IMG/VR virus record: IMGVR_UViG_2778261447_000008
Span: 1 to 13,187 of that record
Length of the DNA: 13,187 bases
Strand: one strand, 5' to 3'
Source of the DNA: a virus
Lineage: Duplodnaviria > Heunggongvirae > Uroviricota > Caudoviricetes
In this document: positions 1,913 to 11,809 of the stretch, piece by piece
Position numbering within the stretch: position 1 is the stretch's first letter
Layout of the letters: the number at the start of each line of letters is the position of its first letter
Notes under the pieces: generated by a model
Told to the model about the DNA's origin: nothing
Database searches by the model: none
What the model saw: only the letters and a program-made list of their open reading frames with translations
Program-made: the position numbers and the translations under genes

Positions 1913-2239
1913 TTACTCCTTAGAGCCACCAAATTTGTTACCGATTACTCGCATTGCAGCCCCACGAATAGCATCGACACCGATCAGCCCCACTCCACCA
2001 CCAATGGCAACAGATAGTGATTTAGGCCATCCGACATACTCAAGAGCGGATGCAAAAGTCAGCGTCAGAGCGCCACAGAGTAGAATTTCGAGTGTTTTTC
2101 GCTTCCAGCCACCACCACCGCCAAAATAGGCAATACGTAAACCAGCCATAACAATCGACATAATCACTGCGCCCAGCGGTGTGTCTCCACGCCACCAGCT
2201 CTGGACCAACTCCAACCAGGTATTTGGGTTATGAGGCAT
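1913..2239 (-). CDS. holin (three predicted transmembrane segments)
   Basis: 108 aa with three hydrophobic segments and a charged C-terminus. Stop lies 3 nt upstream of the endolysin start. First gene after a late-leader terminator. Confidence 0.7.
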   Translation of the reverse strand: MPHNPNTWLELVQSWWRGDTPLGAVIMSIVMAGLRIAYFGGGGGWKRKTLEILLCGALTLTFASALEYVGWPKSLSVAIGGGVGLIGVDAIRGAAMRVIGNKFGGSKE

Positions 2240-2530: not shown

Positions 2531-3706
2531 ATGGATATAACTTGTTTAGAATGTGGCAATGTTCTTGACGACCCAACTGTAGCTTGCGATAAATGCGGTG
2601 CCACGCCTCATGTTGTAGTGCTGGGCAAACAATCGTACTTTCCTATTGGTGCTGTAACAGCAAATCTTGAAAAAAATGATTCAAGAGCATTTGATTATCG
2701 ATTAGGTGAAGTTTGGGATCTAAAAAATGAAGTCACATCTGAATTCATAACCAGAATTGAGAAAAAATTTAGCCGAAAAAACAAATTTCATAACTTCCTA
2801 GACTCAGATCACAACCCTTCATCCATTCCTACGATCCTAAAAAAATACATTAATAAAAATAATGAATTCATTGATTTATCTAGAGCTATAATAGAGAAGC
2901 TTAAACATAATGCTAATAACGAATCGAGAGTTGCCCAACTTCAGGGGGGGAGCGTTGTTTTCATCCACTATAAGTCTACCGAACCAGAGGATTTGGGGAA
3001 ACTTCTAATCGTAATGGTTGATAAACAAAGCGCCTATGACTTTGATTCGGATAAGTTGACCCCAACAAGATTAAATCCAATTAATACCGATGCCTTACGG
3101 CAGGCTGCGATGTTCGATTTAACTTTATTCGAAGCCAGTTATCCAGAAAACAAGGGTGACTCATATGTACATTTCTTGCAAGGTAAATCTAAAAGCGATT
3201 TTTTCAAAGACTCATTAGGTTGCCGACATGATTCGGACAATAAAAGAAGCATTCAGCAATTATTCAGTGCTATAGATATTTTTGCTAGTAAAAACTCACT
3301 CGGTCGTGTACTGCGTGATACTATTGACAATGAAGTTAAATCCTTACTGGAAAAAAAATCAAAAGATAAATACGGAAATAAGTCCGTTAAGATAGAGGAT
3401 ATTTCAAAAATAATTGACTCATGCCTGACTGATTCACACAAATGTAAGGGAACGTTTGTCGATTTTGTTAATCTTAATGGTTTCCAGATTGACCCTCAAT
3501 TTGAACCAACTCCTAAAGCAGCTGAAAGCGCGCTTACAATTGAAGTGGCAGATAACGACAATAATTTTAAGTTGAAAATAATGCGTGGAGCTATTGGAGA
3601 CGAAAAGTCAAATAAGCCTGTAATTCTCACTGACAACAAATGCGAAATTGTGATAAAATTGAGTCAGGCAAATTATGATGAACTCAAAAGATATAGAGAC
3701 AGCTAA
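2531..3706 (+). CDS. zinc-ribbon protein with NdpA/YejK (NA37)-like nucleoid-associated-protein region; first gene of AT-rich cargo cassette
   Basis: 391 aa. N-terminal Cys4 motif (CLECGN...CDKCG). The central region carries motifs I recognise from E. coli YejK/NdpA (GGSVVFIHY vs GGFVLFCHY; YVHFLQGKSKSDFFKDSLG vs [22 protein letters not shown]), recalled from memory. Very AT-rich. Confidence 0.6.
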   Translation: MDITCLECGNVLDDPTVACDKCGATPHVVVLGKQSYFPIGAVTANLEKNDSRAFDYRLGEVWDLKNEVTSEFITRIEKKFSRKNKFHNFLDSDHNPSSIPTILKKYINKNNEFIDLSRAIIEKLKHNANNESRVAQLQGGSVVFIHYKSTEPEDLGKLLIVMVDKQSAYDFDSDKLTPTRLNPINTDALRQAAMFDLTLFEASYPENKGDSYVHFLQGKSKSDFFKDSLGCRHDSDNKRSIQQLFSAIDIFASKNSLGRVLRDTIDNEVKSLLEKKSKDKYGNKSVKIEDISKIIDSCLTDSHKCKGTFVDFVNLNGFQIDPQFEPTPKAAESALTIEVADNDNNFKLKIMRGAIGDEKSNKPVILTDNKCEIVIKLSQANYDELKRYRDS

Positions 3707-3708
3707 TA

Positions 3709-4269
3709 ATGACAATTGCTGATGACTTATCAAGATTAGCGCAGATTATTAACGGAGCCTCAAGCAGAGTTGAGGGCTACTACACTGTCATAAGTCTTGA
3801 AGAAAGCATTGTTATTGTAAATAGTTCTGAAATAATTAGACTGTTACAATCTATAGGTTATAAAAAGGCAACAACCTGCATCGAAAATAATGAAATTTGG
3901 CTAGATCGCCAAGCTTCATCTTGGGATGACGCTATAATTTATGAGAATGTTGAGTCTTTTTGGTCTAGAGTAAACACCCAAAACGCTCTTCCGAAAAATT
4001 ATATCATCGGAACGCCGTTAATACTCCCTACTTCTAAGAATGAAAGCATCGAAAAAATCCATATTTTCTTTATGTGGAAAGATATCCTTTCATTAATTGC
4101 TGATCATCATAACAGTGACTGCTCTGTCTTATTTTTCACCAATGAAGACAAAAGTTATACAGTCGAACTCACGCATTTTTTACAATATAGCGAGATTAAT
4201 CGCTTATCGAACTCGTCTCTTAAATATGAAATTATAAAGGAGCTTCTCGACACAATAAAAAATCAATGA
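3709..4269 (+). CDS. hypothetical protein; second gene of cargo cassette
   Basis: 186 aa. The ATG overlaps the tandem stop codons of the upstream gene (taaTAATG), indicating translational coupling. AT-rich; no recognisable family. Confidence 0.55.
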   Translation: MTIADDLSRLAQIINGASSRVEGYYTVISLEESIVIVNSSEIIRLLQSIGYKKATTCIENNEIWLDRQASSWDDAIIYENVESFWSRVNTQNALPKNYIIGTPLILPTSKNESIEKIHIFFMWKDILSLIADHHNSDCSVLFFTNEDKSYTVELTHFLQYSEINRLSNSSLKYEIIKELLDTIKNQ

Positions 4270-4354
4270 TTTACACAAAAGCGAGCGCAAACTCGTTATA
4301 CGCTCAGCCATAAACGAAGTATTTAAAGCAAATGGTACGTTCAATTTCTTTGAC

Positions 4355-4924
4355 TTGCTTAACTCTACTGAACTCGTCAGGAAAAAATATGATGAACTAT
4401 ATGAGATTTACACAAAGAGGTTTTCTGTAAATAAAATTCTTAACGAACTCGATGAGAAAAATCTTGAGTTCACGAGTAAAATTAACGAATTCATATCATC
4501 TAATCAGACAAAAGCATTGACTATTCCCGGTGCATTAATAGCAGCTGGTGGCTTAGTGAAGGCTAATGAAACAACCGAAGCAATATTGATTATCGCAGGA
4601 CTTTGGATGATAAAAAAAGTCAATTACATTTCTATTGAGATATTCAATGAAACATTCGACAACTTACGTTCTCGAGTGGAGTCCGCTTTCGATAAGTATT
4701 TAAAGTTTGAAGAAAATAAAGAAATCAAAGATAATGCAGATAGTATTAAGAGTAGCATTACAGGTTTGATTGATAAAGCTAAAAAAAGGATGAGAACTGT
4801 TAAATATCTCGCATCAGCCATGTTTTATGGAGGCCTTATTTACGTTGGATATAAACAGTTCCCAGTCTTTTTTGAAAAATCGGCAGTAAATCTATTTTAT
4901 TTTTTATGCCATACTATAAGCTAA
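4355..4924 (+). CDS. small predicted membrane protein (two hydrophobic helices); third gene of cargo cassette; start codon uncertain
   Basis: 189-codon frame with hydrophobic segments ALTIPGALIAAGGLV...ILIIAGLWMI and YLASAMFYGGLIYVGY. The track start is TTG with no Shine-Dalgarno and there is no in-frame ATG before residue 84. A strong AGGA-N6-ATG at 4379-4391 is in another frame. The 3' end overlaps the Q 3' end by 21 bp. Confidence 0.45.
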   Translation: MLNSTELVRKKYDELYEIYTKRFSVNKILNELDEKNLEFTSKINEFISSNQTKALTIPGALIAAGGLVKANETTEAILIIAGLWMIKKVNYISIEIFNETFDNLRSRVESAFDKYLKFEENKEIKDNADSIKSSITGLIDKAKKRMRTVKYLASAMFYGGLIYVGYKQFPVFFEKSAVNLFYFLCHTIS

Positions 4925-5275
4925 CATTGCTAAACAGCCGTCAACAAACCCCATTGCAGTTTGCAGTTCCTTCCTAATTGTGCCATCAGAGCATTTTCTC
5001 TTCTTCGCAATAGTGCGTAATGAGATACCGATAACAAAGTGGGCGATGATGAGCTCATATTCCTCTGGTTTATACCTTCTCAACCGAGCCACACAACTGT
5101 CTATCATGATGCCTTCGTCATCATCACACTGAATCCGTGACTTTTTGCCATGAGGTAAAAGTCCCTTGAAACCAGCCGCTATCGGCTGCCAGTCCACTCC
5201 GCTATTGTCTGAAGCAGCCCAAGCTCCCCAACGATCCATTACTTCATACATATCACGCATCAACTTTCTCCACAA
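4904..5275 (-). CDS. Q: late-gene antiterminator Q (QuuD / phage-82-type)
   Basis: 123 aa with the motifs RWGAWAA, IAAGFKGL, KSRIQCDDD, C.ARL and CSDG.I.K.LQ that I recall from E. coli QuuD-type Q proteins. Last gene of the minus-strand early operon, upstream of the lysis genes. Confidence 0.8.
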   Translation of the reverse strand: MWRKLMRDMYEVMDRWGAWAASDNSGVDWQPIAAGFKGLLPHGKKSRIQCDDDEGIMIDSCVARLRRYKPEEYELIIAHFVIGISLRTIAKKRKCSDGTIRKELQTAMGFVDGCLAMLAYSMA

Positions 5276-5277
5276 AA

Positions 5278-6273
5278 TCAGGCCAGCACACCAATTGCCA
5301 GCGCACGATCGATAAAACGAAATATCAACTCCAGCTGGGAGCCATACTTCTCTTCAAATGCCACGGTATCCGCATGCAGCTCGTCGTGATGCTTTCTGCA
5401 CAAAGGCAACACAAAGAGATCATGCGCTTTTGTACCCATTCCCCCCTGACCGTGGCCTATCAGATGGTGGGGATCATCAGCAGGCTTTCCACAACATGCA
5501 CACGGCTGCGTCTTAACCCAGCGCGTGTACTTTTCATTAACCCAGCGGCGACGTTTTGGGCGTAACATAAAAGACTCCGGCGACTCCGGCTCCACTTTCA
5601 GCGCCAGCACCTTTTTCGCTTTATCCTGGATGATGCTGGTGGCAGGAACCGAAGGAACAAGGTCACTTTCCCGGGTGACAGACGGCACAACAGGCTTCGG
5701 TAATCTCAGTGCCTTACGGGCTGCACTTTCCGGTAAGGCATCCGCCAGGTCATTACGAACCAGCCACCAGCATAGTTCCGGCATTGTCACAACGTGACTA
5801 TCATCAAAACCGAGATCCCGACGCACAACAGACAATACCCAGCGGGCACAGTTATCCGTTGCCATTGATTCCAGCCGTTCCGTGAACTGATCGCGCAGCT
5901 GGTTATCGCAGTGCCAGCACAGACGGATTGCGCCCGGAGCGTGTCGCATTGTGGTCATGTTCTCGCTGTGCCAGTCGGAATGAGGCCACTGGCAGCCTTT
6001 TTCACGAAGTAACCAGCTTTCAAGACATTCCACCCCACCAGCACGACGGATCACTGTCTCATTGCGGAACACGGCCCGAACGGCAGGATCATCCGCCAGC
6101 GTTTGTGATGCCGCCGGAACGGCACCACTGGCAAAAGATGAATAACGTTCCGGCTCAGGCTCCAGCAGGACACGCCCCTGCATAAACAGGGGCATCAGCT
6201 CTGAACCTGGTCTGAACAATACGATCCCCATACGCGGGGCAATTTCAGGGGTCAGTAGCGCTCTCACGGTCAC
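5278..6273 (-). CDS. DUF968-family prophage protein with HNH-like Cys/His cluster (YdfU-like)
   Basis: 331 aa; the C-terminus carries CACCGKPADDPHHLIGHGQGG...CRKHHDELH. Typical nin-region position between KilA-N and Q. Tightly packed against both neighbours. Confidence 0.7.
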   Translation of the reverse strand: MTVRALLTPEIAPRMGIVLFRPGSELMPLFMQGRVLLEPEPERYSSFASGAVPAASQTLADDPAVRAVFRNETVIRRAGGVECLESWLLREKGCQWPHSDWHSENMTTMRHAPGAIRLCWHCDNQLRDQFTERLESMATDNCARWVLSVVRRDLGFDDSHVVTMPELCWWLVRNDLADALPESAARKALRLPKPVVPSVTRESDLVPSVPATSIIQDKAKKVLALKVEPESPESFMLRPKRRRWVNEKYTRWVKTQPCACCGKPADDPHHLIGHGQGGMGTKAHDLFVLPLCRKHHDELHADTVAFEEKYGSQLELIFRFIDRALAIGVLA

Positions 6274-6274
6274 C

Positions 6275-7084
6275 TCAATGAACGGTATCGAGCAGCTTTA
6301 ACAGCTCAGGGAATCGGGATTCGAAGAAATGCGGCTGCGTCTCGCGCGGATTTGCGGGACTGGTGATGTTCTTGCCGAACATGCAACCTTTCGCTGTCAG
6401 CGACCAGAATTTTTTGATGTTGTTAATCGCGGTACGGCTGTATCGTTCGCGCTGCTCGACGATCCCCAGTTTCACCATCTGGTGATATGCCTGATTAGCC
6501 GTCAGGCGTATACCATACTGTTTCAGCAGTGCGCTCAGTGACAGTGTCGGGCGACTTGAGCCATCGTGTGCATCAGCAGGAGCATCAATGGCATAGCGCG
6601 GTGCCAGATTCGGTAAGCCAACAGCCTCCTGGAGTTTCTGACAGGCACCAAGCACTGAAGAGTTAGACAGGTTTAACTCCCGGCGCATAAAGTCCAGCAG
6701 GATCACGCCAGCCTGCATCTTGTCAGCAGCCTGTCCGGATAATTTTTCCGGTGCGCTGGTTACCATATCGAAAGTACGGATCACCTTCAGATGGAATGAC
6801 GGGCTGATCCACATTGCATAGGCATACACCAGTTCCTTGCAGACATACGTTCCCCGTTCATTTCCCCCATGAATCACACTCACCGGGTCAACACCCAAAT
6901 TCTGGGTGTTGGTCAATTCATGAACAAGCTCAACAGTTTGTTGGCTGGAAAGAAACTTTCCCGGCTCCTTGGTTCTGGCATTTGCACCAGATGCTACTGC
7001 TGCGCGATGCAGATCGTTCAGGCTGTAACGCCCATAAGCATCACGACGAACTTCAATACCATCAATGACCATCAGATTATTCAT
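6275..7084 (-). CDS. KilA-N domain protein
   Basis: Starting at Met12 of the track ORF (ATG 7084..7082) gives an AAGGAG Shine-Dalgarno 9 nt upstream. N-terminal region (MVIDGIEVRRDAYGRYSLNDLHRAA) resembles KilA-N DNA-binding domains. Confidence 0.65.
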   Translation of the reverse strand: MNNLMVIDGIEVRRDAYGRYSLNDLHRAAVASGANARTKEPGKFLSSQQTVELVHELTNTQNLGVDPVSVIHGGNERGTYVCKELVYAYAMWISPSFHLKVIRTFDMVTSAPEKLSGQAADKMQAGVILLDFMRRELNLSNSSVLGACQKLQEAVGLPNLAPRYAIDAPADAHDGSSRPTLSLSALLKQYGIRLTANQAYHQMVKLGIVEQRERYSRTAINNIKKFWSLTAKGCMFGKNITSPANPRETQPHFFESRFPELLKLLDTVH

Positions 7085-7103
7085 ACTTCGTTTCTCCTTT
7101 TGC

Positions 7104-7493
7104 TCAGGCGGCTGCACCCGCCGTTTTCTCGTACTTACTGATAGTGATCTCGACCTTCCCTTCCGGGATAACCGGTCCCCACTCCACCAGCATTCTTTTC
7201 ACCTGACTGTCGTCTTCCCACACACCCGCGTGGGTCAGGGCGTCAAACAGTGCCTTGTTATAGTTGTCCAGATCGCGGATCCGGTTATCCGGAGGAAACA
7301 ACACGATCTCCACTGAAGCAGGTGCCGACGTTGGTTTCGGCAGACGACGTAACTGCTCAACTATTGCTGCGCACGCCGCGCTCTGGAATTTGCGCCCCGC
7401 CGCGCTTATCAGGCTCTTACCTGCAAACGCCCCTTTGTTGGGGTGTCGCCAGTACGTGTTCACGCTGAGCGGAAAAGGCCGGATCAGCTTCAT
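7104..7493 (-). CDS. rusA: RusA-family Holliday junction resolvase
   Basis: 129 aa with RDLDNYNKALFDALTHAGVWEDDSQV, matching the RusA catalytic-core pattern (RRDLDN...FDALT.AG.W.DD.QV). Confidence 0.85.
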   Translation of the reverse strand: MKLIRPFPLSVNTYWRHPNKGAFAGKSLISAAGRKFQSAACAAIVEQLRRLPKPTSAPASVEIVLFPPDNRIRDLDNYNKALFDALTHAGVWEDDSQVKRMLVEWGPVIPEGKVEITISKYEKTAGAAA

Positions 7494-7816
7494 ACTTTCA
7501 GGTCCCTCTCATGTAACCAGTGGGTTGCACGCAGCCTTGCGTTTTCCTCACCGGCAAGCAGTGCGCGGATAATCCCGACCGCCTCGCTGTCGTCGTCCTT
7601 CACCGCGGTATGAAGCGTTATCCCCCGGGCCACGCCACGCTTTATCGTGATGACGCCTTTTTTCTCCAGTGCGCGAAGATGCTCCACCGCTGCATTCACT
7701 GAACGGTATCCCAGCATGGTTGCCACCTCCTGATTGGTTGGCGGGAAGCCACGTTCTTTCTGATAAGAAATCAGCATATCCAGCACCTGCTGCTGGCATT
7801 GAGTTAACGTCGTCAT
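7490..7816 (-). CDS. LexA N-terminal DNA-binding-domain protein (no peptidase domain)
   Basis: 108 aa. Residues 1-70 align with the LexA winged-helix domain (QQQVLDMLISYQKERGFPPTNQEVATMLGYRSVNAAVEHLRALEKKGVI vs LexA [50 protein letters not shown]). No S24 Ser/Lys domain. ATGA overlap with rusA. Confidence 0.75.
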   Translation of the reverse strand: MTTLTQCQQQVLDMLISYQKERGFPPTNQEVATMLGYRSVNAAVEHLRALEKKGVITIKRGVARGITLHTAVKDDDSEAVGIIRALLAGEENARLRATHWLHERDLKV

Positions 7817-8466
7817 GCCGCCATCTCCCTGACCAGTTTTTCCGCCTGCTGGCGAACCTGCGCCAGAAACGCCTCACCACATGCCTCAAGTTCATCGCGC
7901 CCGATGTAGCTGATTGCCGGTCCCTTCCAGGTCTTATCGAAAACAGCAATAGCACCAGCGAAGAAAGCGCCTGTCGGCACCTGCTTCTCATCCTTCGGGA
8001 TAAACCAGGCAGGCAGTTCAAAACCAATACGCCCGCGAATAAAAGCAATATGATCTGCATCTTCCGGCCACCACACTTCGCTGGTGGCAGCTTTGATCAG
8101 GAAAACATAGCGCCCGCCCTTATCACGCATGGCACTGGCATGCTTCATGATGTAACGCATGCCAGTGATGTATTGCCCCTCATGCTGACTGGCGCGGCTG
8201 TATGGGGGATTACCAAAGGCAGCACCTTTAAGCTCCACAAGACGTTCTGACCAGTCATGCGCCAGCGCGTTGTCTTCCGCCGTGTAATACGCAGCACATT
8301 TGGCGTTATCACCATCAGTGAACAGATCCAGAACAAACGGGCCAAACAGGGTGTTAATTCCCCAGAAAATGTTATCCGGCGTGCGCCACTGATCGCCCAC
8401 TTCCTTCAGTTCATGGGCTGGTTTGTTCCGCAGTTCCGCCAGCGCCTGGCAATATTTATTACTCAT
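7813..8466 (-). CDS. phage DNA N6-adenine methyltransferase (Dam-like)
   Basis: NPPY catalytic motif (AAFGNPPYSRA). Start chosen at Met12 (ATG 8466..8464) because it overlaps the upstream stop as TAATG; the track ORF extends to 8499. Confidence 0.75.
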   Translation of the reverse strand: MSNKYCQALAELRNKPAHELKEVGDQWRTPDNIFWGINTLFGPFVLDLFTDGDNAKCAAYYTAEDNALAHDWSERLVELKGAAFGNPPYSRASQHEGQYITGMRYIMKHASAMRDKGGRYVFLIKAATSEVWWPEDADHIAFIRGRIGFELPAWFIPKDEKQVPTGAFFAGAIAVFDKTWKGPAISYIGRDELEACGEAFLAQVRQQAEKLVREMAA

Positions 8467-8960
8467 TAAGCCCCCACGTAATTCCCTGACAGATACCACT
8501 CTTCACCCGATGCCGCGCGCTTGCTGCTTTTCCGTAAGCACCGCTCACGACGCTCCAGAAAATTGTTTCGTTCTGGCTGGGAGTGGCTTTCACGGAATGC
8601 CGCCATCCACACCGTTGCAGCACGACGGTATAAGCCCCTGGACTCCAGTTCTTCCGCCTGGCGGGTCAGGCACAAAATCACCCGCGGGTCGTTAGTGCCG
8701 ACATAGAAATTGCGCACAGGTCTGGTTTCACGAACTGGTTGTGGTTCCGGATCCTGCGCTCTCTCAGTCAGGCGCGGGAAATGTCTGCGTGTATCTCCTT
8801 CACAACGGTGAGCCACACGCCCACTCTGACGTAACTTGCTTGCTGACTGCAGAACGTTCTGCCGTGAGTAACCTGCAAAAGCATCCGCAATGTCTCCGGA
8901 AGTACACCCCGGATGGGCTTCAATGAATTTCTGAACTTCATTCAAAAGACTCATAATCAC
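8466..8960 (-). CDS. hypothetical regulator with PerC-like motif
   Basis: 164 aa. The segment AEELESRGLYRRAATVWMAAF resembles the conserved PerC/Pch activator core (LE..GLWRRAA..W) as I recall it. Start overlaps the stop of the O-like gene. Confidence 0.45.
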   Translation of the reverse strand: MIMSLLNEVQKFIEAHPGCTSGDIADAFAGYSRQNVLQSASKLRQSGRVAHRCEGDTRRHFPRLTERAQDPEPQPVRETRPVRNFYVGTNDPRVILCLTRQAEELESRGLYRRAATVWMAAFRESHSQPERNNFLERRERCLRKSSKRAASGEEWYLSGNYVGA

Positions 8961-9898
8961 CCCCTGAATCCTGCAGGGATCTGGCTGTAGTCCACGTTGT
9001 CGTAACTGGCTTTGAAGTACGGGTCTTCGCGTTTTTCTGTGTACGTGCTGACGGACGGCGATAAGCGCAGGGAAAGCTCATCCCATTTTTCCCGCAACTT
9101 CGACGGGCTGAGCACGTTACGGCACCAGAACGGATCGCGGCTGACGCGGCTGTACATCTCGCAGATTTGTTTGTGAGTACGACCATCCTGCACACACATC
9201 AGGCGAATTTCGTTTGCCCAGGCTGTCCAGTTAGGTTCTTTGGGACGAACCACCTCGCCGTCACATTCGGCGGCCTGCTCGTACAGGGCGATGATTTTTT
9301 TCCAGAGCCACTGTGCGCAGGTCAAATCATCCTGCGTTCCCCACTGGCGATTTTTAGGGCTGAATACAACCGCATCAGGATAGCGAGTTAAAAAATCCTG
9401 TTCAGCCTTCTGCGTGTCCGGTTGCGAAGCGTCCGGACAAGAAGGTTTTTTATCTGACGGATCATGTTTTGATTTTACTGACGGATCCCCGCCAGATTCT
9501 GACGGGTGAAAACCCGCTTTTTTGCCAGATTTCGACGCATCAAATTTTGACGGGTCAGATTTTGATGCGTCAGATTTTGACGGGTCAGAATCTGACAGTT
9601 GAGAAAATGCCGCTGCCTGAAGCTTCGCAACGTTAAGCTGATAAACATTCGACGCATTGCGGTTACCCTGGCGACGCGCCTTACGCGTTAACCAGCCTTC
9701 TGCTTCCAGCCGTGCGATAGCCGTTCTGACGGTACTCATCCCCGCGCCAATCTGGCGGGCAATGGTTTCAATTGATGGCCAGCACACACCTTCGTCATTA
9801 CTGAAATCAGCCAGGCGGGCCATAATTGCCACGCTGGATAACTTCATGCCTGACGCAGCGCAACCATCCCATACATAGCCGGTTAATTTAGTGCTCAT
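8957..9898 (-). CDS. replication initiation protein (O-like) with N-terminal helix-turn-helix and an iteron-encoded linker
   Basis: 313 aa. The N-terminus (SIETIARQIGAGMSTVRTAIARLEAEGWLTRK) is a winged-helix typical of phage replication initiators. A low-complexity SDPSKSDASKSD linker is encoded by tandem DNA iterons, as in lambda O. Confidence 0.7.
   Translation of the reverse strand: MSTKLTGYVWDGCAASGMKLSSVAIMARLADFSNDEGVCWPSIETIARQIGAGMSTVRTAIARLEAEGWLTRKARRQGNRNASNVYQLNVAKLQAAAFSQLSDSDPSKSDASKSDPSKFDASKSGKKAGFHPSESGGDPSVKSKHDPSDKKPSCPDASQPDTQKAEQDFLTRYPDAVVFSPKNRQWGTQDDLTCAQWLWKKIIALYEQAAECDGEVVRPKEPNWTAWANEIRLMCVQDGRTHKQICEMYSRVSRDPFWCRNVLSPSKLREKWDELSLRLSPSVSTYTEKREDPYFKASYDNVDYSQIPAGFRG
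9493..9600. repeat. replication-origin iterons (tandem ~15-bp repeats, consensus CAGATTTTGACGGGT) inside the O-like gene
   Basis: Seven head-to-tail copies read directly: cagattctgacgggt, cagatttcgacgcat, caaattttgacgggt, cagattttgatgcgt, cagattttgacgggt, cagaatctgacagtt, plus tgacgga-type degenerate copies at 9448-9484. Confidence 0.65.
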
Positions 9899-9907
9899 GA
9901 CCGACCT

Positions 9908-10246
9908 CTATTTCTCTGAATTTACGACGAAACTGTTCGAGCGGGCTGAAGCACTCATGCTCATAGCCTTCGCGGAGGTAGATAACCCGTTGTGTTTCCG
10001 GCTCCCAACGAATGACTCTGACGGGTACTCCGTAGTGATCTTTGAACCAGCGGTTAACTTGTCGCAAAGGACTGTCTCCTTCTGCCGGTTGAAATCACCC
10101 ACAGCCCACTCTGCAAAGCTGTGGGTTACAATTTCCCTGTCACCTGGTACATTCACTGCATAGCAATATTCCACCTTCGCTTTTCCACCCGGTACAGGAA
10201 GCGCAATCAGTTGCGAGCGACGGTAGTGTGTTGTTAAACTGTTCAT
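9908..10246 (-). CDS. hypothetical protein, translationally coupled between the CII-like and O-like genes
   Basis: 112 aa. Its ATG overlaps the upstream stop as ATGA (10246..10243) and its stop lies 10 nt before the O-like start. No family recognised. Confidence 0.5.
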
Positions 10247-10812
10247 GCGTTAGTTTCTCCACAACCAGAAGCAATCGACGCCACGACGCCCGGAGCTGCA
10301 CACTCGCGGGCGTCATTACTTTCTGAAATGCAAAAAATTTTGTAGACCAGTGCTGCATGCTCCTGCAGCTTCGAAATTGAGAGATACAGCTCGTCGTTAA
10401 TTGCTGTCTTCTCATGCGGTTCCACTACACCGTCTTCGATTGCTGAACGAATCTGTTTTGAATAACTGCCGATCTGTTCAATGACTTCCAGCAGACGCTG
10501 GTTAATATCGGCGTTGTCCACATCCTCGACGTCAGGAAGAGACACAAAGACGCCATTTGTAGACTGCGCCACAGCATCAGCAATGAAGTGAGTGCCACCA
10601 GCACGCTGTAAAACCATTGCCCATCCCAGCGGGAAAATCTGATCGCCATCTGCACGAAGGCGGTTGAATAAAGCGTTTTCTGTTACATCGAGCCAGTCAG
10701 CCGCTTCAGCGTAACCACCCGGCAACGCCGCGATAGTTTTTCTGACAGCTTTCACGTACCACTCAGGCTGTTTTTCTATTTTCCAGTGATGCTTACCCAC
10801 GATTAGCCTCAT
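10243..10812 (-). CDS. putative CII-type regulatory protein (family assignment tentative)
   Basis: 189 aa, second gene after cro, in the position of lambda cII. Weak resemblance to CP76-type phage regulatory protein CII (L.N.L motif region). Not lambda CII itself. Confidence 0.45.
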
Positions 10813-11134: not shown

Positions 11135-11809
11135 ATGAAAACAATCCATGACATCCGGCGGTCTAACGCCAGAAAACTGAGAGATGGTGTTGGCGGGAAT
11201 TCTTCCTTTGCCACTATGATTGATCGCGAGCCAACCCAGACCAGCAGGTTTATGGGAGATGGTGCTACTAAAAATATCGGTGACAGCATGGCACGACACA
11301 TCGAAAAATGTTTCGACCTGCCTGTCGGATGGCTCGATCAAGAACACCAGACAACGAACATCACAAAAAAACCTGATGTTTCAATCACTAATAAACAAAT
11401 CACATTAGTCCCTGTCATATCATGGGTACAGGCCGGAGCATGGAAAGAAGTTGGATATTCTGAGGTTGATTTGAGCACAGCAGAAACGTATCCCTGCCCT
11501 GTACCCTGTGGGGAAATGACTTATATCTTGCGGGTGATAGGTGATTCAATGATTGATGAGTACCGCCCGGGAGACATGATTTTTGTCGATCCTGAAGTAC
11601 CTGCCTGCCACGGTGACGACGTTATTGCATTGATGCACGATACAGGTGAAACCACCTTCAAAAGGTTGATAGAAGATGGGACACAGCGTTATCTCAAAGC
11701 GTTAAACCCAAACTGGCCTGAGCCTTACATTAAGATCAACGGTAATTGCTCTATAATTGGAACTGTGATTTTCTCAGGAAAACCAAGAAGATACAAAATC
11801 AAAGCCTAA
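11135..11809 (+). CDS. cI: CI-type prophage repressor (helix-turn-helix plus S24 LexA-like peptidase domain)
   Basis: The C-terminal domain closely parallels lambda cI (PVISWVQAG..., GDSM serine motif, TFKRL lysine, ALNPNWPEP vs lambda LNPQYPMIP). The N-terminal DNA-binding domain is divergent, implying a different immunity specificity. Confidence 0.85.
   Translation: MKTIHDIRRSNARKLRDGVGGNSSFATMIDREPTQTSRFMGDGATKNIGDSMARHIEKCFDLPVGWLDQEHQTTNITKKPDVSITNKQITLVPVISWVQAGAWKEVGYSEVDLSTAETYPCPVPCGEMTYILRVIGDSMIDEYRPGDMIFVDPEVPACHGDDVIALMHDTGETTFKRLIEDGTQRYLKALNPNWPEPYIKINGNCSIIGTVIFSGKPRRYKIKA

Follow-up and report, generated by a model that had tools for sequence, protein, structure and literature searches.

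The closest described system is found in GIL01, a temperate tectivirus of Bacillus thuringiensis. Its gp6 is a phage-encoded, truncated LexA homologue of 66 aa that is expressed early. Gp6 does not bind the LexA box but a palindrome of its own, GaCACAnnTGTGaC, at −43.5, and activates the late promoter P3. Residue K38 of its recognition helix is essential for gp6 (PMC6182141). For LexA itself, the DNA-contacting residues are S39, N41, A42, E44 and E45 (PMC3091678), and the N-terminal domains contact each other on the operator (PMC3159453).

Two further groups were used for comparison. The LexA(1-84) autocleavage fragment and the non-inducible LexA(Ind-) mutants represent LexA DNA-binding domains that RecA* is unable to remove. 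The fragment reportedly binds DNA weakly and is said to be degraded by ClpXP via its new C-terminus. DinI-like proteins and GIL01 gp7 represent phage-borne tuning of the host SOS circuit; their targets are RecA or the LexA protein, and a LexA-type DNA-binding domain is not involved.

The locus described here lies in a window (the whole analysed stretch of 13,187 nt) that is the early-right, nin-like and lysis part of an SfV/mEp460-type lambdoid E. coli prophage. It encodes a LexA-like protein of 108 aa. Like gp6, the protein comes from an early gene of a temperate phage, has the winged-helix domain without an S24 domain and would be insensitive to RecA. The two families were connected by profile comparison (hhalign probability 96.7%, 33% identity over 63 columns, with gp6 K38 aligned to N41); BLASTP against gp6 gave no pairwise alignment. 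Unlike the 108-aa protein, which has an extra two-helix tail of 38 aa, gp6 has no tail and belongs to the Gram-positive LexA lineage. Moreover, gp6 activates the late promoter P3, whereas the phage of the window uses Q antitermination. The two families are independent domestications of Gram-positive and proteobacterial LexA, respectively.

Compared with E. coli LexA (PDB 1LEA, 1JHH, 3JSO), the N-terminal 70 residues have the same fold and about 50% identity, and S39, N41, A42, E45, G61, R64 and G65 are conserved. In contrast to LexA, the 108-aa protein is phage-encoded in an early operon, lacks the S24 domain, the Ser119/Lys156 pair and a conserved Ala-Gly, and carries Val in place of Glu44. 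A helical tail replaces the dimerising catalytic domain. It also differs from LexA(1-84) in its end (..RDLKV), its conserved extra tail and the changed contact residue. The likeness to LexA(1-84) and LexA(Ind-) is the functional analogy behind the model of an SOS mimic. The 108-aa protein has no sequence relationship to DinI-like proteins or gp7, but dinI adjoins a sister subfamily of the gene (see below).

The LexA-like protein and its operon

The Pfam model LexA_DNA_bind (PF01726) was covered over 65 of 65 positions (E=2.9e-19) in the 108-aa ORF. The top sequence matches among solved structures were the N-terminal domain of E. coli LexA and full-length LexA (E about 1e-15). The secondary structure was that of a winged helix, with helices at residues 6–22, 28–35 and 40–52 and strands at 56–58 and 66–68. 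A single-sequence AlphaFold2 model was poor (pLDDT 58) and was replaced by a model based on a 34-sequence family alignment. The latter reached a pLDDT of 82 and showed the LexA topology in residues 1–70, with a monomer pTM of only 0.56. Residues 1–68 of this model fitted LexA of the LexA–DNA crystal structure with 1.0 Å at 50% identity (structure matches 3jso and 1leb). Hence, the original prediction of a stand-alone LexA winged helix was confirmed by the full-length PF01726 match, by ~50% identity and by the superposition on the LexA N-terminal domain.

The protease half is missing. The protein stops at residue 108, gave no match to the S24 peptidase model (PF00717) and lacks the Ser119/Lys156 dyad. 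The lexA equivalog model TIGR00498 was aligned at positions 1–91 of 203 and scored 70.6 bits vs a cutoff of 110.95. Without an S24 domain and its Ser/Lys dyad, the protein, judged from its sequence, is not open to inactivation by RecA-stimulated autocleavage. This had been predicted as well, and it agrees with an Ala-Gly pair that is unconserved and lies in a predicted helix.

The position of the S24 domain is taken by a two-helix tail (Table 1). Its residues L86, L87, A93, A97, W100 and L101 are conserved across genera, and a search of the tail against the PDB returned zero matches. The tail is presumed to be a dimerisation element. HMMER paired its LLAGE with VAAGE of LexA, and A88-G89 was aligned with LexA Ala84-Gly85. 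A cleavage-site mimic or pseudo-substrate was considered and rejected: homologues carry AN, VG, ER, DD, NN and other pairs at this position, and the segment falls inside the predicted helix 75–88, not in an extended cleavage loop. The most economical origin would be a proteobacterial LexA that was cut short just past the hinge and whose remainder was remodelled into a helical hairpin.

Table 1. Positions of the genes and protein segments in the window; the early operon is on the − strand, and the genes are given in its order, from right to left across the window
Feature	Position	Strand	Remark
cI-like S24 repressor	11135–11809	+	
Cro-like gene			between cI-like repressor and CII-like gene
CII-like gene	10243–10812		
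HTH_36 replication protein	8957–9898	−	
PerC-like protein	8466–8960	−	upstream of Dam
N6-adenine methyltransferase Dam	7813–8466	−	PF05869, E=1e-45; upstream neighbour
ATGA overlap, Dam stop TGA/LexA-like start ATG	7813–7816	−	sequence read
LexA-like gene, 108 aa	7490–7816	−	
LexA-type winged helix-turn-helix	7607–7816	−	residues 1–70
Recognition helix SVNAAVEHLRALEK	7661–7702	−	residues 39–52; codons read
Beta-hairpin wing VITIKRGVARGITL	7613–7654	−	residues 55–68; alignments
Two-helix tail in place of LexA S24	7508–7594	−	residues 75–103 (helices 75–88, 93–103); AlphaFold2, pLDDT 85–87
ATGA overlap, LexA-like stop TGA/rusA start ATG	7490–7493	−	sequence read
RusA Holliday-junction resolvase	7104–7493	−	PF05866, E=6e-14; downstream neighbour
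KilA-N protein	6275–7117		
DUF968/HNH protein	5278–6273	−	
Q	4904–5275		
Moron block, three genes	2531–4924	+	
Holin	1913–2239		endolysin and spanins beside

The likely start of Dam is the ATG at 8466, which matches the annotation of mEp460 and SfV. A GGAG was found 8 nt upstream of the LexA-like ATG. Translational coupling to the methyltransferase and rusA had been claimed. The ATGA overlaps are present at both gene junctions, and from them we infer a probable coupling of the LexA-like gene to both neighbours.

From the replication gene to Q, the genes abut with zero intergenic space, and neither an internal − strand promoter nor a strong terminator was found in this block. The LexA-like gene should therefore be expressed with the delayed-early operon. 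As there is no intergenic space, any linked operator would have to sit within coding sequence; the alternative is a target in the host chromosome. The dam promoter annotated in SfV was considered as a sign of expression in lysogens and set aside: it is a weak prediction, and the −35 element is different in the window.

The PerC-like protein has a PerC-type domain (E=8e-9) and a weak MarR-like N-terminal winged helix-turn-helix (YfdN family). With it, the close-packed block has two putative regulators, and the PerC-like protein is kept alongside the LexA-like gene in four genera. The most constant neighbour is the DUF968/HNH-like protein, which, in all contexts looked at (8 genera), stood downstream of the LexA-like gene and before Q.

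The moron block lies antisense between Q and the holin and comprises a 391-aa homologue of the nucleoid-associated protein NA37, orf186 and orf189. The NA37 homologue is named 'nucleoid-associated anti-phage protein' by PGAP in near-identical prophages; PADLOC gave no significant match for the moron block. Late transcripts would need to cross 2.4 kb of antisense moron genes. In a Cronobacter prophage, the same slot (L007:7880-9955) holds RelA_SpoT and NA37.

DNA-reading residues and possible targets

Four of the five LexA contact positions are kept in the 108-aa protein (S39, N41, A42 and E45, codons verified), and the fifth is V44. In the wing, G61, R64, G65 and I66 agree with LexA. The control set for these comparisons consisted of 76 full-length lexA genes of beta- and gamma-proteobacteria, taken from a contig scan that returned mostly host lexA. 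The motif of the control genes was S-[APV]-N-[AS]-A-E-[ED]-H, and Glu44 was found in all 76. None of the 122 sampled family members with an aligned tail had Glu44; the residue at this position was V, T, N, A, L, F, Y or I. Position 45 was E or D in most of them and L, T, I or G in some. The sole family member seen with Glu44 was from Scandinavium. Subfamilies differ from one another at positions 40, 44 and 45.

Altered and diversifying operator specificity would be expected to leave such a pattern, because a contact that is invariant in LexA has been lost and positions 40, 44 and 45 vary although the hosts share one SOS box. As four of five contact residues and the wing are kept, canonical boxes may still be bound, e.g. 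with relaxed specificity. The original prediction had named a divergent recognition helix as a sign of unrelated specificity, and the result is mixed: Glu44 is replaced and positions 40, 44 and 45 are variable, but S39, N41, A42, most of the helix and the wing are kept. The DNA target probably differs somewhat from the host SOS box.

We checked the window for sites of the form CTGT-N8-ACAG with at most one mismatch. Nine matches were found vs 4.6 expected, and 8 of 200 shuffles reached nine. A position weight matrix (PWM) of the SOS box was derived from 19 boxes of E. coli. The best score in the window was 11.7, inside an ORF, vs 12.9–27.2 for known sites. The search for LexA-box-like sites in the phage, which had been proposed as a check, thus gave no convincing SOS box in the window with either the mismatch scan or the PWM.

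CTG-N10-CAG, in the frame of the SOS box, occurred 12 times in the window vs about 3–5 expected. Four of these sites are in kilA-N and form two close pairs (6629/6655 and 6975/6997). The excess was rejected as an operator signal and treated as chance: the sites are heterogeneous, and the kilA-N pair 6629/6655 is destroyed in the Salmonella orthologue. The intergenic inverted repeats of the window contained no new operators, only cI/Cro-type operators and terminators. Palindromes common to the window, SfV and mEp460 were also rejected, being merely homologous coding DNA. Overall, neither the window nor the co-inherited block yielded a candidate operator.

Two near-perfect LexA boxes (L001:11253-11272 and L001:2202-2221) were seen in phage mEp460, another carrier of the LexA-like gene; both regions are absent from the window. 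The box TACTGTATGTAAAAACAGTA is inside an annotated prophage repressor CDS, and the box CACTGTTTATTTTTACAGTA is at the 5' end of a late-region DNA methylase gene.

Family, distribution and the sister subfamily

The 327-bp gene was present at 95–100% identity in 41% of complete E. coli genomes (2233 of 5426), with up to four copies per genome. It was also found in SfV, SfII, SfIV, mEp460, cdtI, many Stx2a, Stx2c and Stx2k phages, and others. Copies in E. coli with 100% identity bear the PGAP name 'LexA family transcriptional regulator'. In SfII and mEp460 (mEp460_046), the annotation is 'LexA DNA binding domain protein', and SfV orf42 is listed as 'unknown'; SfV orf42 and mEp460_046 have 96–100% protein identity to the 108-aa protein. 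PHROG 362 ('transcriptional repressor') was matched with E=3.8e-59, residues 1–108 against profile positions 1–106 of 106, tail included. In a comparative analysis of Stx phages (PMC8136144), 15 phages have a pham called 'LexA family transcriptional regulator' whose sole domain is pfam01726. This pham (237) is probably the same gene. In the searchable literature, we found annotation-level mentions only and no experimental study of the family. The gene is common and already annotated; its reading as a LexA DNA-binding domain is correct but not new.

The family was defined by profile and exhaustive searches. It consists of enterobacterial prophage proteins of 105–135 aa with the winged helix and the same two-helix tail, and it was found in Escherichia, Salmonella, Citrobacter, Cronobacter, Klebsiella, Enterobacter, Atlantibacter, Kosakonia and Scandinavium (40–60% identity between genera). 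The invariant residues were Q8, G23, P26, E30, G36, S39, N41, L50, K53, I56, R64, G65, I66, A97 and L101. The gene moves between phages that differ in their immunity, late and tail modules. Travel among such unlike backbones points to a target either within the block or in the host chromosome; the latter would favour binding to SOS boxes.

In Cronobacter, Salmonella and Atlantibacter, the order of replication protein, PerC, methylase(s), LexA-like gene, RusA, KilA-N or Rha/ANT, DUF968 and Q recurs. The situation is different in a sister subfamily with an N-terminal extension (130–135 aa). In all four genera examined, a canonical, high-scoring LexA box heads the same-strand string of genes that contains the sister gene. 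In Klebsiella (L002:4385-5393), the box TACTGTTTATTTATACAGTA is 20 nt before a phage dinI, which is followed by orfX and the LexA-like gene. In Scandinavium (L037:1778-4312), the box is followed by dinI, further genes and the LexA-like gene. A metagenomic phage (L010:340-2231) has two boxes, a phage recA, orfX and the LexA-like gene, and Enterobacter (L009:3560-4408) has a box, orfX and the LexA-like gene.

These strings indicate that host LexA controls them and that the gene keeps company with genes of the SOS circuit. The upstream SOS box is a sign of control by host LexA and not of binding by the phage protein; the Klebsiella sister proteins have Leu at both positions 44 and 45. A link of the LexA-like protein to the SOS response is plausible, since the wing and most of the helix are kept and the sister genes stand behind LexA-box promoters beside dinI or recA.

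The sister module as a whole consists of the SOS box(es), dinI, recA or nothing, a conserved 77–97-aa orfX, the LexA-like gene, a conserved 66–67-aa ORF, RusA in some cases, DUF968, a Q-like gene and lysis genes. From its layout, it looks like an SOS-controlled prophage module that has been undescribed so far. The phage RecA homologue (L010:404-1513) has 369 aa, is about 70% identical to E. coli RecA and has its own double SOS box. It lies inside the prophage early region, downstream of a cytosine-methylase-like gene and a terminator. In Klebsiella, the 5' extension of the LexA-like ORF contains a terminator-like hairpin (13-bp stem, then a T-run; L002:5034-5066). For the Klebsiella subfamily, the annotation of the start codon or of the N-terminal extension may be in question.

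Competing explanations

The reading we prefer, with a probability of about 0.4, is a RecA-insensitive, LexA-derived dimeric regulator which resembles gp6 and reads a CTGT-class palindrome differently at the position of Glu44. A proteobacterial LexA winged helix-turn-helix with a family-specific helical hairpin would form a small protein of the transcription-factor type. Its gene, placed between the replication genes and Q, would be read as part of the long delayed-early (pR-side) transcript. We infer that it dimerises via the helical tail and/or LexA-like wing–wing contacts on DNA. It would bind a LexA-class (CTGT) palindrome, and the site would be read differently where LexA uses Glu44, given the systematic exchange of that residue in the family. 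As the cleavage machinery is lacking, binding should be insensitive to RecA*, and the protein would be active exactly once host LexA is destroyed. It would act on its own target promoter(s) as GIL01 gp6 does and not as a plain copy of host LexA. Several points speak against this reading. The searches of the window and the co-inherited block gave no candidate operator, the retained contact residues and wing might allow binding to canonical boxes, and for dimerisation through the tail the monomer model has a low pTM (0.56). As to the likeness to gp6, Q antitermination drives the late genes, so a gp6-like role as a late activator has no obvious slot.

The strongest competitor, less probable than the gp6-like regulator, is the uncleavable LexA mimic of the original prediction. 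Such a protein would bind the canonical SOS boxes of the host (CTGT-N8-ACAG). Once LexA is destroyed by RecA*, it would re-repress SOS genes together with LexA-controlled genes of co-resident prophages and colicin plasmids, and so damp the SOS response in lytic growth. The about 50% identity and the 1.0 Å rmsd to the DNA-bound LexA N-terminal domain agree with a mimic, as do the retained S39, N41, A42, E45 and wing residues G61, R64 and G65. The contacts between N-terminal domains on the operator, known for LexA (PMC3159453), fit as well. So do the sister genes behind LexA boxes, with dinI in Klebsiella (L002-4) and Scandinavium (L037), with recA in L010 or directly in Enterobacter (L009), and the movement of the gene among unrelated phage backbones would fit a host-encoded target. 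However, the contact Glu44 is present in 76 of 76 LexA genes and replaced in 122 of 122 sampled family members. If a fixed host site were tracked, LexA-like constraint would be expected; the variation of the 44/45 pair (VE, AE, TD, ND, LL, FI, LT) in hosts that share one SOS box therefore counts against a mimic. Positions 44 and 45 are both Leu in the Klebsiella subfamily, whose genes follow the best SOS box, and this box reflects control by host LexA. Moreover, a strong SOS box is missing from the window (best PWM score 11.7 vs 12.9–27.2), and gp6, the only truncated LexA homologue of a phage known to have been characterised, does not use the LexA box. That the protein is in fact a RecA-proof LexA surrogate, re-occupying SOS-type operators after LexA cleavage and acting as a brake on the SOS response, is unlikely in our view.

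Three further explanations were weighed. An accessory DNA-binding factor for the Dam and C5 methylases, RusA and DUF968/HNH would target or shield sites or act as a controller protein of a methylase. The tight ATGA coupling to Dam and RusA would suit this, and the order of Dam (/C5 methylase or D12 methylase), LexA-like gene and RusA is seen in Escherichia, Cronobacter, Salmonella and Atlantibacter, with DUF968 downstream in every context. However, there is no adjoining methylase in the Klebsiella, Enterobacter and metagenome subfamily and no RusA in the Klebsiella and L010 loci, so the association is not obligatory. The synteny is also simply that of the whole nin-like block, and we know of no precedent for a LexA winged helix-turn-helix as an accessory to DNA enzymes; this explanation is improbable. 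Still less probable is a protein decoy or partner with no operator of its own, which would form mixed dimers with LexA on DNA or titrate a factor specific for the N-terminal domain or the cleavage region of LexA. The HMMER and TIGR00498 alignments do extend through the LexA hinge and cleavage region (VAAGE vs LLAGE), and the wing that mediates contacts between N-terminal domains is conserved. However, the AG pair is unconserved in a segment predicted to be helical rather than an extended cleavage loop, and the strictly conserved residues are the DNA-reading S39, N41, R64 and G65, which points to DNA binding. Finally, the protein resembles a LexA truncated just after the cleavage site and might be a functionless, decaying remnant of a captured lexA. 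Its length, start, tail and key residues are conserved at 40–60% identity in at least nine genera, and 41% of the complete E. coli genomes carry it at 95–100% identity. A conserved length and tail rule out a decaying fragment, and we give this explanation next to no weight.

If the regulator is gp6-like, it would be a second, independent case of a phage-domesticated LexA DNA-binding domain. The lambdoid nin region, commonly regarded as containing accessory enzymes only, would also gain a regulator. If SOS-type operators are bound with immunity to RecA*, a gene of nearly half of the E. coli genomes would modulate the DNA-damage response. Mutagenesis, persistence, induction of its own or rival prophages and toxin release after antibiotics could then be affected. 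If the protein is a surrogate of LexA, host SOS functions would be shut down together with LexA-controlled antirepressors, colicins and toxins of competing elements. The sister subfamily with phage DinI or RecA would then form an SOS-induced negative-feedback module, with consequences for the induction of Stx phages and for competition in polylysogens. The gene is of moderate interest because it is widespread, present in Stx phages and easy to test.

Tandem arrangements of the domain were also seen. The representative library proteins P0130, P0131, P0148, P0150, P0153, P0156 and others (140–350 aa) have two tandem LexA_DNA_bind domains in one chain. They may be single-chain pseudo-dimers of the LexA winged helix.
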